Below are positions 10,258-64,000 of a DNA stretch of 64,000 nucleotides, one piece after another. The notes below the pieces were generated by a model, which had not been told where the DNA came from, did no database searches, and saw only the letters and a list, made by a program, of their open reading frames with translations. Every line of letters begins with the position of its first letter. Position 1 is the first letter of the stretch. The DNA comes from Escherichia phage phiEC1. The DNA is taken from the sequence record KY608965.1. The stretch is one strand, 5' to 3'. Both the position numbers and the translations under genes were made by a program.

Positions 10258-10893
10258 ATGGCGACATACTACAGATTGTATATTACAACATTTGAAACAT
10301 CCACTGGTATAAAGATTTATGGTGGTAAACACAAATCAGTTTACGAAGACCCTTCAAAAGACCCTTATACTGGGTCTGGTACCTTTATACGAAGGGCCAA
10401 AAGAAAATACGGTCCGTCTTGTATAAAAGAAATTATATGGTCTAAGCCATTTGAATCTAAAGCTCTAATGGATGAAGCTGAAGAGTTACTGGTAGATGAA
10501 TTATCCATTTTAGAAAATTGCGCAAATCTTGTTAAAGGTGGTGCAGGCGGAAGGTCGTATATTAACCCAGAAGATAATCCATCTATAGGACAAAAACGTT
10601 CAGCCCAATCTAAAAAGAAAATGTCTGACGCCGCAAAATCAAGAAAATGGACTGAAGAAGGGTTAAGAAAACGTAAAGAATCTACAGCAAGAATGTGGAA
10701 AGATTTCAAACATAGACATCCTGATTTTTCTGGTTCAAAAAATCCAGCAGCTCGAAAAGTTAGTGTAAATGGTAAAATATTTAACACCTGCAAAGAATGT
10801 GGTGAAGAATTTAATATCACATCAAGCGCGGTTATAGGCCGATGCAAAAACAACAAACCTAAATGGGCAGGATGGAATTATGTCGACGTATAA
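10258..10893 (+). CDS. GIY-YIG homing endonuclease (seg-like), inserted between genes 13 and 14
   Basis: N-terminal GIY-YIG-type motifs (YYRLYITT…[10 protein letters not shown]…YTGSG), NLVKGGAGG motif, Lys/Arg-rich C-terminal DNA-binding tail ending …[21 protein letters not shown]…WAGWNY, paralogous to the ORF at 62702..63385. Confidence 0.8.
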
Positions 10894-60537: not shown

Positions 60538-60923
60538 TACTTTTTAAAAGTTTTTTGCAAAAGTTTGATGATTTCGTCGACGTTGGTTTCATCTACGATA
60601 CAATGGATTTTTGTTACACCTAAAGTTATACCTTCGTTAGTAGATTGAGGCTTTTCTAAAGTTACCTCAGTAAAGTATTTGAATTCTTCAGAGTAAATCT
60701 CAAAATACGTCTCAAGTGGGCCACCAGCCATGTATTCAGTGCCGTCTTCCATAGTTACACGTACCACACAGTCACCAGCACAATCATCACTTTCCATTTC
60801 ATCTACAACAAAACTAGGTCCGTGCTTCTCTATTAAATTTAGCATCATTACATTGCAACGGCACTCGTTAGCAAAGTCATCTTTAAATAAAGGGTTAATG
60901 ATATAAGATTTTCCGATTTCCAT
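60537..60923 (-). CDS. Hypothetical early protein, tandem paralogue B
   Basis: 128-aa ORF; paralogous to 60113..60475; early promoter 60953..60981. Confidence 0.6.
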   Translation of the reverse strand: MEIGKSYIINPLFKDDFANECRCNVMMLNLIEKHGPSFVVDEMESDDCAGDCVVRVTMEDGTEYMAGGPLETYFEIYSEEFKYFTEVTLEKPQSTNEGITLGVTKIHCIVDETNVDEIIKLLQKTFKK

Positions 60924-60952
60924 TTTGATTTCCTCATGTTGTTGATAGGTCT

Positions 60953-60981
60953 ATACTAACACATTCAGGGAAGAAGTAAAC
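60953..60981 (-). promoter_or_regulatory. Early promoter for ORF 60537..60923
   Basis: On - strand GTTTAC-N17-(GAATGTGT)TAGTAT. Confidence 0.6.
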
Positions 60982-61005
60982 AACTTTTTCAGCAATTTAC
61001 AGATA

Positions 61006-61030
61006 CTCAAAAGGGAGACCGAAGTCTCCC
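61006..61030 (-). terminator. Rho-independent terminator after gene 32
   Basis: On - strand GGGAGAC-TTCG-GTCTCCC followed by TTTTGAG. Confidence 0.85.
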
Positions 61031-61036
61031 GATTTA

Positions 61037-61939
61037 TTATAGACCAGCTAACAGGTCATCGAGGTCGCCATCATCAGAGGATGAGGTAGAGCTCATGAAG
61101 TCATCTTCAGTTTTTGCAGAACTAAAGGCTTCCATGTCTTTATCAAAATCGTCAAGGTCAGAAGCAACTTTATCTGCAACAGAAGCTGCTGCGGCTGCTG
61201 CACCACCAAGAGCGGCAGTACCAAGAACCTTAGCGAAAGATTCATTTAATTTTTCAAAGGACTTGAACTGGTCTTTAGCCGTCAAAGTAGTAAGGTCTAC
61301 CATCTGGTCATATAGTTCTTTCTGGAATGCTTCGTCATTAATACGAGGAATTTCAGATTGACCCAAGAATTTAGATTCGTCGTAGTTGCTAAAACCAGAA
61401 ACCTGCTTAGCTTTCAGAACGAAGTTGGCACCTTCAAACGGACAAGTAACATCAACCGGAGTTTCACCCATTTCGGTATCAACTGCAATCATTGCATTGA
61501 TTTTGTCCCAAATCTTTTTACCGAAACGATATTTAAATACTTTACCTTCGTTATCTGGAGCTTGAGGGTCTTTAACAACCAGAATATTAGCCCAATAAGA
61601 AGTTTTACGTTTCAGTTGAGAATATTCAGTTTTGTTGGTATTGTACAGGTCATTTTTACTAATGTACTGACATACAGGACAAGAGTCGTAATCACCATGT
61701 GTAGAAGAGCAATTTTCAATATACCATTTACCATTTTTCTTGAAACCGTGGTTAACAAGAATTGCAAATGGTAGTGCGTCATCAGTTTTTGCTGGCAGGA
61801 AACGAATTACCGCTTGACCATTACCTGATGCATCTAGCTTCAGCTTCCATTCGCCTTTATCTTCTGAAGAGAAACCTTTGTTACCGTTCAGTTTAGCCAT
61901 TTGAGCAGCGAGGTCAGCAGTAGATTTACGTTTAAACAT
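61037..61939 (-). CDS. 32: Single-stranded DNA-binding protein gp32
   Basis: 300 aa; zinc site (…[15 protein letters not shown]…), acidic C-terminus; matches recalled T4 gp32. Confidence 0.97.
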
Positions 61940-62026
61940 TATATTTACCTTTATTTAGATTATTTAATTTATTTACAGTTGGTTGCTACGACACTTATAC
62001 CTCGTAGCTGGTATGATTTATTTATA
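61940..62026 (-). promoter_or_regulatory. Gene 32 late promoter plus leader with autoregulatory translational operator
   Basis: TATAAATA on - strand at 62019..62026; 5' hairpin GCTACGA…TCGTAGC (61985..62008); then AU-rich leader with repeated UAAAUAAA-type elements before the ATG. Confidence 0.7.
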
Positions 62027-62055
62027 AAGTAATTTTAACACACAAGAAATAAAGC

Positions 62056-62709
62056 TTAATACTTACATGATTTGATTGTTTCTATGAACAATTTCTTAGC
62101 AGCATTTCCATCGATTTGAAGTATTTTTCGATATGCCTTTAATTTGGTAGAATAATTTTGCCAGACTAAATTGTCAGTAAGTTCGTCATGCTTATCTATA
62201 ATATTCAAGAATGAATCCAACAACAAGAAGGTTTCAAATGAAATTATATTGCTTTGTAGCAATTTGAATATGTAGCTCGACTGAACGTTGTTATTATAAT
62301 CAAATATCTCTTGAAGCGCACTAACTTCAACTTTCTTACTGAAATAGTAGATGTTACGTACGTCTTCGGCAAATGTCTCTTTAGCTTGTTTGAGACGTCC
62401 AATATATTCCCTATAGAAAACTAATGCATCAGCGTCTGATATCTCACCAATCCATGCGTCTTGGTTAGCAACTAAGTTGCTTATGAATATCAAGGTGAGT
62501 TCCTTCAATTTATATTTCTCTGCTAGTTTTTCAAAGAAATATTTATCTCGGCGTTTTTGATACGCATTATCCGAAACACGCATGCACCAGTTATATTTGA
62601 TTACGTCATACCGACCACCAAAATGGTTTTTGCACATCAAGTATAGTTTATATACCGATTTTCCATTAATATAACGTTCTCCATCAGGAGGCATGCGTAT
62701 TTTAATCAT
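62056..62709 (-). CDS. 59: Helicase loader gp59
   Basis: 217 aa as in T4 gp59; matches recalled T4 sequence (…YKLYLM…YDVIKYNWCMRVSD…). Confidence 0.95.
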   Translation of the reverse strand: MIKIRMPPDGERYINGKSVYKLYLMCKNHFGGRYDVIKYNWCMRVSDNAYQKRRDKYFFEKLAEKYKLKELTLIFISNLVANQDAWIGEISDADALVFYREYIGRLKQAKETFAEDVRNIYYFSKKVEVSALQEIFDYNNNVQSSYIFKLLQSNIISFETFLLLDSFLNIIDKHDELTDNLVWQNYSTKLKAYRKILQIDGNAAKKLFIETIKSCKY

Positions 62710-63385
62710 ATTTCCATCCGGACCATTTTGAAGATTTAAGTCTATATGTAACTAAAGACGCAGAAATATTAAAAACATTTGAAACTTCTTTACACGAGGC
62801 GTATTTTATACCATCAATAATTATAGGTTTTTGTTTTTTAATAGTTCTTTCTTTAGAATGCGACTTTGAATTTGCTATTCTAAGAGCTTCTTTGGTTGAA
62901 TCAGGCATCGGCTTATTCGTTTTTCGCCCTTTTCGGACTTTACTCAAGGCCAATTTGTGAGCTTCAGATAGTTTCTTACCCTTATTAGGTGACGGTATTT
63001 TTCTTTCTAGTCTTGTTTTAGATACTTTAGCCTTAGTCTCTTCAGATCTAGGTTTACCTAATTTAGAAAGTGAAATAGACCTTTTAGCTTCATCACTTTG
63101 TTTTTTACCAGGACCACCTTTACCACCGGGAACTAAGTTATAAGTATCATCTCGCAAAACAAAATCTTCGTTAACCAATTCTGCTTCTTTTTTATAGGCG
63201 TCCTTGTCATTATCATATTCATAAAGAATTTCGGTATAAAAATTTTTTAGTCCATATTTAGCTTTGGCCGCTAATATAGCGCGGCCTGATCCAATATACC
63301 AATCTTTCTCTTTATGTTTTTTGTGTACGCCTATATAAATTTTACCATTTATTTTATTGGTAGTTTTATACACAACGTATTTCAT
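62702..63385 (-). CDS. GIY-YIG homing endonuclease (seg-like), inserted between genes 33 and 59
   Basis: N-terminal GIY-YIG motifs (YVVYKTTNKINGKIYIGVHKK…WYIGSG), NLVPGGKGGPG, Lys-rich C-terminal DNA-binding tail …SCKEVSNVFNISASLVTYRLK…WSGWKY. Confidence 0.85.
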   Translation of the reverse strand: MKYVVYKTTNKINGKIYIGVHKKHKEKDWYIGSGRAILAAKAKYGLKNFYTEILYEYDNDKDAYKKEAELVNEDFVLRDDTYNLVPGGKGGPGKKQSDEAKRSISLSKLGKPRSEETKAKVSKTRLERKIPSPNKGKKLSEAHKLALSKVRKGRKTNKPMPDSTKEALRIANSKSHSKERTIKKQKPIIIDGIKYASCKEVSNVFNISASLVTYRLKSSKWSGWKYD

Positions 63386-63720
63386 AATAAGAAATCTAAC
63401 GTATTAGTTTTTTCACCACGAGCAACTGATGGGCGAAGCATGTTTTCGTCAATTGCTTCGCTTGTAATTTTTTCAACAATTCCTGTAGGAATAAATTTAG
63501 CAAATTGTGTTTCTGGAATAGAATTTTCTTCTAAGAAAGCAGTTGTTGCTTCTAAATAAGACATACCAAATTGTTCAACCATAGATTCGATAATGAATCC
63601 GTTTTCTTGACGGTCAAGCAATTTAGCGATATCATCTTTATCGTGTTTTACTGCTAATTCTTGTTCAGATAAACCGGCCTCATCAACCGGTTTAATATCA
63701 CTTAGTGAAAACTGTGTCAT
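63382..63720 (-). CDS. 33: Late-transcription accessory protein gp33
   Basis: 112 aa as in T4 gp33; matches recalled sequence (MTQFSL…DKDDIAKLLDRQENGFIIE…). Confidence 0.93.
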   Translation of the reverse strand: MTQFSLSDIKPVDEAGLSEQELAVKHDKDDIAKLLDRQENGFIIESMVEQFGMSYLEATTAFLEENSIPETQFAKFIPTGIVEKITSEAIDENMLRPSVARGEKTNTLDFLL

Positions 63721-63967
63721 AAAGCTCGACTACCTCTTCGTTTTCAGCTTCAAATTGGTCACGAGCATCTTTATGATAAAGAGCTAACAAACGATTAAAC
63801 ATTTTTCCATCGACACCAAGCTCTTCTTTAGCACGAGTACGAATGTCTTTAATCAGTTCATTATAACCAGAAATTTTAAGTTTGTTATCGGAAGCTTCCT
63901 TGACTAGTTTAGCCAGTTCTTCACCATGCACATCTTGATTAAATTCAACTGCTTCTTTCTTAGTCAT
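63698..63967 (-). CDS. dsbA: Double-stranded DNA-binding protein DsbA
   Basis: 89 aa from ATG at 63967 with GAGGT Shine-Dalgarno; position next to gene 33. Confidence 0.8.
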   Translation of the reverse strand: MTKKEAVEFNQDVHGEELAKLVKEASDNKLKISGYNELIKDIRTRAKEELGVDGKMFNRLLALYHKDARDQFEAENEEVVELYDTVFTK

Positions 63968-64000
63968 GTTTACCTCAGAATTCATTAATTACACTTGTTA

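Follow-up and report, generated by a model that had tools for sequence, protein, structure and literature searches.

The window analysed here, a stretch of 64,000 nucleotides from Escherichia phage phiEC1 (sequence record KY608965.1), carries an open reading frame lodged between genes 33 and 59 that overlaps both of its neighbours, which raises the question of what this frame encodes and of how such a gene could enter and persist at a junction of that kind. The window phage is a Mosigvirus (RB69-like T-even coliphage). Taken as a whole, the explanation that we consider very probable makes the frame a free-standing Seg/I-TevI-type homing endonuclease gene (HEG), present in Mosigvirus as an optional 676-bp cassette at the 33/59 junction and homing to the intact form of that junction.

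Identity of the 33/59 reading frame

Direct reading of both junctions confirmed the overlaps described in the initial annotation for this 227-aa frame, namely 4 nt (ATGA) shared with gene 33 and 8 nt shared with gene 59 (Table 1). The location is intergenic, with complete gp33 and gp59 ORFs on either side, and the 59-32 spacer in the window (116 bp) contains no ORF. A group I intron context was considered for the gene and ruled out, since no Rfam family, group I introns included, was matched anywhere in the window.

Table 1. Positions of the features discussed, numbered from the first nucleotide of the window
Feature	Position	Strand	Basis
Gene 33, late-transcription co-activator	63382..63720	(-)	Pfam Trans_coact 3.5e-26
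Overlap of gene 33 stop and endonuclease start, ATGA	63382..63385	(-)	Read directly
Endonuclease ORF, 227 aa, ATG start	62702..63385	(-)	Mechanical ORF list and direct reading
Seg-type GIY-YIG nuclease domain, aa 1-92	63110..63385	(-)	Family profile vs 1LN0
Linker rich in Lys and Arg, with repeats resembling NUMOD3, aa 93-182	62840..63109	(-)	Composition and weak NUMOD3 match
I-TevI-type C-terminal DNA-binding (helix-turn-helix) domain, aa 183-226	62708..62839	(-)	Pfam PF20987
Segment absent from HEG-less Mosigvirus genomes, 676 bp	62711..63386	(-)	Carrier and non-carrier genomes aligned, 10 of each
Overlap of endonuclease stop and gene 59 start, ATGATTAA	62702..62709	(-)	Read directly
Gene 59, helicase loader	62056..62709	(-)	Pfam T4_Gp59_N 1.9e-49, T4_Gp59_C 6.3e-44
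Second Seg-like GIY-YIG endonuclease gene, between neck genes 13 and 14	10258..10893	(+)	BLASTP, phrog_314

The assignment of the gene to the Seg-like GIY-YIG homing endonucleases, as originally proposed, was borne out by matches to TIGR01453 over essentially the full length of the protein (aa 4-226; 74.2 bits, cut-off 56.05), to the 'homing endonuclease' family phrog_314 (1.9e-55) and to the Pfam family PF20987, I-TevI_DNA-bd (aa 183-226; 45 bits, cut-off 27, E 1e-11). These matches support the conclusion that the frame encodes a putative free-standing GIY-YIG homing endonuclease of the T4 Seg/I-TevI family. Near-identical GenBank records label it either 'homing endonuclease' or 'Seg-like homing DNA endonuclease', and a literature search found no paper on the 33/59 endonuclease.

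A family profile (A1) built from 22 homologues matched 1LN0, the catalytic domain of I-TevI, at positions 1-92 (E 7.6e-17), and the residues invariant among those homologues are Y6, Y17, G19, E67 and N83. All the residues expected of a GIY-YIG catalytic domain, namely the Tyr of GIY, the Tyr-x-Gly of YIG, the Glu and the Asn, are present, and the 33/59 protein shares with T4 SegA-E a 'GxH...YxGSG' motif, while its scores against the Pfam families SegE_GIY-YIG (22.5 bits) and GIY-YIG (11.5) lie under their respective cut-offs of 25 and 22.6. The GIY-YIG N-terminus noted at the outset stands as a domain, but the 'WYIGSG' quoted for it corresponds to the Seg-subfamily 'YMGSG' motif and not to YIG; alignment with I-TevI places 'GIY' at V4-V5-Y6 and 'YIG' at Y17-I18-G19. 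Likewise, what had been read as a 'Lys-rich C-terminal tail' resolved into two parts, a linker rich in Lys (aa 93-182) and, after it, a structured DNA-binding domain of the I-TevI type (aa 183-226). The linker (K+R = 28/90 aa; Lys 22%) lines up with the SEETKxKIS repeats of homologues, and its NUMOD3 match is a weak one under the cut-off (E 0.011, 16.1 bits). The DNA-binding structure of I-TevI, 1I3J, was matched by phmmer with an E of 4e-4 and with the family profile at 9e-7.

Only two ORFs in the window matched the family profile, the other being the gene between neck genes 13 and 14, whose product also matched phrog_314 (2.6e-37) and likewise ends in an I-TevI DNA-binding domain. Comparison of the two proteins by BLASTP established a similarity beyond chance (about 30% identity over ~230 columns, E 2e-15 to 2e-14), and their designation as paralogues holds only in the broad family sense; it fails in the sense of a recent duplicate, as T4 SegD is closer to the 33/59 protein (39.5% vs 30%). 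By BLASTP, T4 SegD, SegC, SegB, SegE and SegA are all nearer to the 33/59 protein than is the 13/14 protein, the nuclease domain of which is closest to SegF, and these affinities indicate that the two genes represent independent acquisitions from the Seg pool, with no within-genome duplication. The 13/14 gene is itself optional (12/199 matching records), and the presence of the 33/59 gene in SHSML-52-1, from which the 13/14 gene is absent, shows that the two genes segregate independently.

Occurrence at the junction among relatives

The comparison with HEG-less 33-59 junctions that had been suggested was undertaken within the genus on individual GenBank phage records, the IMG/VR scans with gp59 and endonuclease queries having given few Mosigvirus loci and serving for cross-genus context and the family alignment. 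The whole locus was covered in 28 of 170 matching phage records, the gene being carried by ~18% (about one in five) of close relatives, and the HEG-less records listed covered 65% of the locus in two pieces. Within the relatives examined the difference proved to be the precise presence or absence of a 676-bp segment, bordered by a TATGA direct repeat that leaves its ends ambiguous by 5 bp; in the HEG-less members of this set, genes 33 and 59 overlap each other directly, the overlap in FP43 being 4 nt. Carriers and non-carriers were both found within one species, Mosigvirus shsm521. The gene is therefore distributed as a Seg-type gene is, sporadically among co-linear close relatives and with an exact empty site.

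Inspection of the junctions showed that the cassette is inserted exactly at the overlapping stop/start (ATGA) of genes 33 and 59, so that the former position of the gene 59 start is now the cassette's own start, and that a replacement gene 59 start (ATGATTAA) lies inside the cassette's last codons; since the cassette brings this replacement with it, the 33-59 operon remains intact. The gene 59 start ATGATTAAA is kept in 16 of the 21 T-even-like loci compared, and conservation of the junction sequence at the 3' end of gene 33 extends across genera. The 33/59 junctions of Dhakavirus, Winklervirus and Karamvirus are also occupied, in these cases by diverged copies with 52-61% identity, each of which starts ATGATTAA(A/G), a duplicate of the gene 59 start, and the 8-nt overlap between endonuclease and gene 59 recurs in Dhakavirus IME540 and Karamvirus KMB20.

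The state of the individual copies bears on a reading that we consider improbable, according to which the gene is an inactive or decaying relic that persists because its 3' end now supplies the gene 59 start region, such that only a precise deletion could remove it. Decay is the expected end of HEG life cycles, and in the AV116 copy an extra nucleotide (1 nt inserted) disrupts the reading frame beyond about codon 103, although this frameshift could be a sequencing error. The column of the I-TevI catalytic Arg27 is moreover occupied by K27 in the alignment, and no clear equivalent of that Arg is evident; however, Arg is likewise absent at this position from T4 SegA-E, a Lys there being typical of the Seg subfamily, and the four of these reported to be active, SegA, B, C and E (PMC2988022), have the same loop without Arg27. 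The relic reading is further opposed by the intact 227-aa frame in 10/10 sampled copies, by the excess of synonymous codon differences among them (up to 24 synonymous vs 10 non-synonymous), and by the retention of the catalytic Tyr, Glu and Asn in four genera despite divergence to 52-61% identity.

The age and distribution of the lineage were also weighed against the proposal that this is a domesticated nuclease, kept mainly for inter-phage competition (marker exclusion) or some other benefit to the phage and hence not purely selfish. A cross-genus pairwise identity similar to that of gp33 (52-61% vs 59-66%) indicates that the lineage has kept to a single junction over a time comparable to the divergence of the genera, and the composition of the gene is like that of its neighbours (32.3% GC vs 33-34%). 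Against this, carriage by only ~18% of close relatives argues against a strong benefit, and marker exclusion and homing are mechanistically the same, and the proposal is given little chance of being correct.

Expression, target site and immunity

No Shine-Dalgarno sequence was visible upstream of the endonuclease start, where the sequence is the same as that which serves the gene 59 start in HEG-less FP43 and other HEG-less loci. The T4 late-promoter consensus was absent from the endonuclease gene and from the sequence just upstream of it, the sole minus-strand TATAAATA in the region being located upstream of gene 32; sigma-70-like matches showed a modest excess over shuffled sequence (16 vs 10.4 ± 2.4) that was regarded as uninformative. 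No terminator was found between genes 33 and 32, the only terminator-like hairpin lying downstream of gene 32. Such an arrangement recalls the T4 Seg genes, which are promoterless cassettes overlapping the upstream ORF and capable of intronless homing (PMC2988022).

A predicted RNA hairpin pairs the AUG at the gene 33 stop, but its stability was no better than that of shuffles (z -0.7 to -1.3), as was the case for the folds around the two overlapping starts generally (z -0.5 to -1.3), and regulation of the overlapping starts by RNA structure is for this reason not claimed. The translational coupling to gene 33 that we infer would thus rest on the ATGA overlap and the missing Shine-Dalgarno sequence. 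A precedent is provided by T4 MobE at the nrdA/nrdB junction, the start codon of which is similarly fused with the stop codon of the gene before it (UAAUGA), suggesting that coupling keeps its expression low (PMC2988022), although MobE is an HNH-family and not a GIY-YIG nuclease and occupies another locus.

The sequence flanking the cassette was compared in 10 carriers and 10 non-carriers, the latter picked as those most similar to the window. No carrier-specific SNP was fixed across the 2563 aligned columns; within 50 bp on each side, 9/10 non-carriers match some carrier exactly, and HEG-less AV111 is the same as the window over 125 bp downstream. Because no flanking SNP separates carriers from non-carriers, the target is taken to span the 33/59 junction, with immunity probably conferred by the insertion itself; the 3' end of gene 33 is predicted to form the upstream half of the homing site and the 5' end of gene 59 the downstream half. 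An I-TevI-style CNNNG cleavage motif was not seen by eye within 30 bp upstream of the junction, an absence with no diagnostic value, given that the motifs differ among GIY-YIG enzymes.

The characterised T4 Seg enzymes cut away from their own insertion sites (PMC2988022), and a junction-spanning target would consequently be atypical for the family. The same precedent, which extends to the characterised free-standing T4 endonucleases (PMC2988022), lends some weight to a different account, in which a SegF/SegG-like enzyme has its cleavage site within gene 59 or 33, at a remove of tens to hundreds of bp from the insertion point, and carriers are protected by distant variants. In gene 59, all ten carriers share one haplotype at positions 62650 and 62618-62628, from which 6/10 and 4/10 non-carriers, respectively, depart, and the first 100 bp of the gene are less diverse in carriers (0.027) than in non-carriers (0.050). 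Nevertheless, the non-carriers AV111 and mobillu bear the exact carrier haplotype over at least 100 bp on both sides without the cassette, so that the haplotype is not carrier-specific, and co-conversion or hitch-hiking would explain its pattern equally well; together with the want of any fixed difference, these observations make the distant-site account unlikely, if less so than either the relic or the domesticated nuclease. The shared carrier haplotype and the lower diversity at the start of gene 59 may be read as the only indirect hints of site-specific cleavage and of super-Mendelian inheritance with co-conversion.

On the preferred reading, that of a cassette homing to the intact junction, the endonuclease would be transcribed within the dsbA-33-59-32 message, and coupling to gene 33 termination would give it a low level of translation. 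In a mixed infection with a HEG-less relative, the C-terminal domain of the monomeric enzyme would bind that relative's intact 33/59 junction, and the tethered nuclease domain would introduce a staggered double-strand break near that junction. Repair of the break by T4-type recombination, with the HEG-carrying genome as template, would then copy the cassette together with a short flanking stretch, and in carriers the recognition site, divided by the 676-bp insertion, would no longer be cut.

Comparison with known systems and implications

The closest T4 protein to the 33/59 endonuclease is SegD (39.5% identity over 200 aa, E 3e-37), with which it shares the nuclease motifs of the Seg type (GxH...YMGSG) and, in related form, the helix-turn-helix region at the C-terminus, the I-TevI-type C-terminal domain being clearer in the 33/59 protein. 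The two genes differ, however, in orientation relative to their neighbours and in site, and orthology with SegD was rejected on the grounds of position (33/59 and not 23/24) and of an identity too low at 39.5%. T4 SegG presents the closer parallel in context, as a free-standing promoterless GIY-YIG cassette that adjoins gene 59 in the 33-59-32 transcription unit (PMC2988022), but it borders gene 59 on the opposite side, between 32 and 59, and cleaves within gene 32 at a distance from its insertion site (PMC2988022). BLASTP of SegG against the 33/59 protein gave no match even at E up to 10, and given this lack of sequence similarity and the different position, orthology with SegG was also rejected. 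Dhakavirus IME540 holds both SegG and the 33/59 endonuclease, and the two can therefore coexist.

I-TevI, encoded by the T4 td group I intron, has the same succession of GIY-YIG domain, linker and C-terminal helix-turn-helix domain, and its mode of action, with an insertion-spanning target and immunity by insertion, is the one proposed above for the 33/59 endonuclease. It differs in being intron-encoded where the 33/59 gene is free-standing, in an overall identity of only 27%, and in a cysteine-bearing linker region (KFCKCG...CSKC) with no aligned counterpart in the 33/59 protein. It may be, and we put this forward only tentatively, that this Seg lineage acts like an intron-encoded endonuclease without an intron, recognising the intact gene 33 stop/gene 59 start, immunising its host genome by insertion alone, and capturing and replacing the gene 59 start.

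In itself the 33/59 endonuclease is an ordinary selfish gene of a kind that is routine in T-even genomes, and GenBank annotation already names it a homing endonuclease. The Seg family nevertheless gains a junction-specific lineage not characterised before, and carrier and non-carrier phages of the same collections, such as AV110 and AV111, whose flanks are otherwise identical, offer a clean natural system in which to test intronless homing outside T4. The gene 59 start, captured and then regenerated in a conserved manner, illustrates a way for a selfish gene to settle in a translationally coupled essential operon and leave it unbroken. If the tentative proposal is true, the gene would lead a doubly coupled, 'seamless' life in an essential operon, unlike the distant cleavage and polymorphism-based immunity of T4 SegF/SegG, and its lineage, which occupies the same junction in four or more T-even genera, would be one that recognises that junction intact.

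Family assignment and gene context

Searches against family models placed the product of the ORF between genes 33 and 59 (the 33/59 endonuclease) in the I-TevI type of group I intron endonuclease (NCBIfam TIGR01453: aa 4–226, 74.2 bits against a cut-off of 56.05), with additional matches to Pfam I-TevI_DNA-bd (aa 183–226, 45 bits against 27) and PHROG 314, 'homing endonuclease' (1.9e-55). Taken alone, the Pfam nuclease-domain models fell below their cut-offs (SegE_GIY-YIG, 22.5 versus 25; GIY-YIG, 11.5 versus 22.6). An alignment of 22 homologues taken from the fetched loci, deployed as a profile against structures, matched the I-TevI catalytic domain (1LN0) over positions 1–92 (E = 7.6e-17) and the I-TevI DNA-binding domain (1I3J; E = 9e-7). 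Residues Y6, Y17, G19, E67 and N83, invariant in that alignment, correspond to I-TevI Y6, Y17, G19, E75 and N90, so that the GIY motif is VVY (4–6) and the YIG motif YIG (17–19). The string WYIGSG, quoted as part of the GIY-YIG N-terminus in the initial annotation, corresponds to the Seg-subfamily signature 'YMGSG', common to T4 SegA–E. The 'Lys-rich C-terminal tail' (22% Lys over residues 93–182, with a sub-threshold NUMOD3 match) is a linker, and a folded helix-turn-helix DNA-binding domain follows it. The column of I-TevI Arg27 holds Lys27, and Arg is likewise absent there from T4 SegA–E; as PMC2988022 lists activity for SegA, B, C and E, its lack is probably a subfamily trait rather than a sign of inactivation.

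Both the limits of the ORF and its overlaps with gene 33 (4 nt) and gene 59 (8 nt) had been placed exactly, as confirmed by the ORF list and by reading of the minus strand. Gene 33 ends ...GAT TTC TTA TTA TGA, the endonuclease ATG lying within TTATGA to give the ATGA overlap, and the endonuclease ends ...GGA TGG AAA TAT GAT TAA, which contains the gene 59 ATG and gives the ATGATTAA overlap. The GC content of the gene (32.3%) is like that of its neighbours (33–34%).

Features of the window, with the basis of each assignment
Feature	Coordinates	Strand	Basis
33/59 endonuclease ORF, 227 aa	62702..63385	-	mechanical ORF list
Gene 33 (T4 gp33), 112 aa	63382..63720	-	Pfam Trans_coact 3.5e-26
Gene 59 (gp59), 217 aa	62056..62709	-	Pfam T4_Gp59_N 1.9e-49, T4_Gp59_C 6.3e-44
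Gene 32 (gp32 single-stranded DNA-binding protein)	61037..61939	-	annotation of near-identical records
13/14 endonuclease, between neck genes 13 and 14	10258..10893	+	neck genes named by matching-record annotation

An optional cassette at the 33/59 junction

Megablast of positions 61900–63800 against 50,697 phage records matched 170, of which 152 at at least 95% identity, and the loci fetched from these matches were all from Mosigvirus, the RB69-like T-even genus, bar two records with anomalous taxonomy lines. The ORF was present, with the whole query covered, in 28 of the 170 records, carriers in which it is annotated as 'homing endonuclease' or 'putative Seg-like homing DNA endonuclease'; the records listed without it (HEG-less) were covered over 65% of the query in two pieces, and in one of them, FP43, gene 33 runs straight into gene 59 with a 4-nt overlap. 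Alignment of ten carriers with ten non-carriers, a comparison with HEG-less junctions, gave a single 676-bp gap between TATGA repeats, a direct repeat that would provide a route for precise loss of the cassette. Mosigvirus shsm521 includes both FP43 and the cassette-bearing SHSML-52-1, and the cassette is thus polymorphic within one species.

All ten sampled Mosigvirus copies were intact at 227 aa, and the most divergent of these differed from the window copy at 24 synonymous and 10 non-synonymous codons, a pattern that fits purifying selection, and copies from four genera retain the catalytic residues. In the copy of Escherichia phage AV116 a 1-nt insertion (an extra C) puts the ORF out of frame from about codon 103 onwards, between nuclease domain and linker, and reflects either early decay or a sequencing error; the record annotates just the C-terminal 138 aa.

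Diverged copies located at the same junction by tblastn and locus retrieval came from Dhakavirus (IME540, AnYang and LQ5), Winklervirus (Serratia phages CHI14, CBH8 and LC53, and Kosakonia phage Kc304) and Karamvirus (KMB20), and a locus from a gp59 scan of IMG/VR (L014) held the same copy as the Winklervirus phages. In Enterobacter phage KMB20 an intact 200-aa ORF (L110:1501–2103) begins at a duplicated ATGATTAAG; the record annotates just a 132-aa C-terminal ORF, and its start therefore appears to be mis-annotated. Genes 33 and 59 were adjacent in 20 of 21 T-even-like gp59 loci from IMG/VR, so the empty junction is the default. Between-genus identities of the endonucleases (52–61%) are similar to those of gp33 (59–66%) and lower than those of gp59 (73–80%), and no pair is exceptional. 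The lineage therefore seems to have occupied this junction for a long time, and recent cross-genus transfer is disfavoured.

The empty site, a T followed by ATGATTAAA in 16 of the 21 T-even-like loci compared, places the gene 33 stop TGA within the gene 59 start, and gp59 there begins MIK. In Dhakavirus, Winklervirus and Karamvirus carriers, ATGATTAA(A/G) forms the endonuclease's own start (MIK...). In Dhakavirus and Karamvirus the cassette ends with another ATGATTAA, which regenerates the start of gene 59; the Winklervirus copy has ATGATAAC at its 3' site (gp59 MIT...), and its ORF extends 26 nt into gene 59. The Mosigvirus start, ATGAAATAC (MKY...), is that of the other genera minus TTA. Comparison of these carrier and empty-site starts indicates that the cassette took over the gene 59 initiation position, apparently along with its coupling to gene 33 termination, and the replacement initiation site for gene 59 lies inside codons of the conserved C-terminal ...GWKY(H)D motif of the endonuclease.

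On reading the minus strand, no Shine-Dalgarno sequence was seen before the endonuclease ATG. The sole nearby minus-strand site for the T4 late-promoter consensus TATAAATA lies at 62019–62026, upstream of gene 32, and the sole nearby terminator-like hairpin (61013–61030), just downstream of gene 32, marks where transcription of the 33-59-32 unit probably terminates; on the minus strand a T-run comes directly after its perfect, GC-rich 7-bp stem (GGGAGAC...GTCTCCC). A predicted hairpin pairs the AUG at the endonuclease position in carrier and empty-site mRNAs alike, and is no more stable than shuffled sequence. The best-supported reading is that of a promoterless cassette which would be translated via coupling to gene 33, the kind of arrangement that PMC2988022 reports for a number of seg and mob genes in T4. 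Over the whole window, exact TATAAATA sites numbered 17 against 7.3 expected; 13 of them are on the plus strand (2893–36490), which fits the structural (neck) genes annotated in that part.

Predicted target site and presumed immunity of carriers

No fixed difference between the ten carriers and ten non-carriers was found in 2563 aligned columns (window 60752–64000). For nine of the ten non-carriers, the 50 bp on either flank matched some carrier without a difference; for one, mobillu, such a match extended to 100 bp on either flank, and HEG-less AV111 matched the window perfectly over 125 bp into gene 59. As judged from these alignments, carrier immunity cannot rest on a nearby variant. With such variants excluded, and provided that the enzyme is active and its cut lies close to its own gene, the predicted recognition site would span the 33/59 junction and the insertion would interrupt it, as in the case of I-TevI, which is encoded in an intron. 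Coding for the C-terminus of gp33 (...TLDFLL) and the N-terminus of gp59 (MIKIRMPP) keeps the junction DNA strongly conserved from genus to genus, which would suit a homing site.

A cut displaced some 50–90 bp into gene 59, as for SegF or SegG, is improbable beside a junction-spanning site, given the lack of fixed differences in these flanks; some room for it is left by a T at 62650 common to all ten carriers (4/10 non-carriers), by a single haplotype at 62618–62628 in 10/10 carriers (also in 6/10 non-carriers), and by the lower diversity of carriers over the opening 100 bp of gene 59 (0.027 versus 0.050 in non-carriers). The same features are weak signs of hitch-hiking. At 62618–62628, four HEG-less genomes of the ten and none of the ten carriers have four SNPs in 11 bp, changing gp59 KNHFGG to KQHFNG, a cluster that may have arisen by mosaic recombination, may mark hitch-hiking or may represent a variant of the target site.

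Relation to other Seg endonucleases

The only other ORF of the window to match the family profile was the 13/14 endonuclease. Its gene is also optional, occurs in 12 of 199 matching records, less often than the 33/59 gene, and segregates independently of the latter. The proposal that the two are paralogous stands as regards homology (pairwise E = 2e-15) and fails as regards duplication: T4 SegD, C, B, E and A all resemble the 33/59 endonuclease more closely than does the 13/14 enzyme, which combines a C-terminal domain of I-TevI type with a nuclease domain closest to T4 SegF. Duplication within the window was rejected on these grounds, and sequence comparison marks the two as separate members of the Seg pool. 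SegD, the closest named protein (39.5% identity), is encoded at a different site, between genes 23 and 24, whereas T4 SegG, a positional neighbour between genes 32 and 59, is unrelated in sequence. Dhakavirus IME540 has a 205-aa SegG homologue between genes 59 and 32 (58% identity, E = 1e-84); a GIY-YIG endonuclease gene thus lies on either side of its gene 59 (L003:3845–4462 and L003:2498–3184), that of the 33/59 lineage being upstream. The 59-32 spacer of the window is just 116 bp.

No paper on the 33/59 endonuclease gene itself was found in the literature, and the homing-endonuclease label had already been given by GenBank annotators. Its profile matches and its optional 676-bp cassette uphold the initial annotation of a real Seg-like GIY-YIG homing endonuclease gene, an uncharacterised member of a well-known kind, the modest interest of which lies in its keeping to a single operon junction from genus to genus and in its capture of the gene 59 start.
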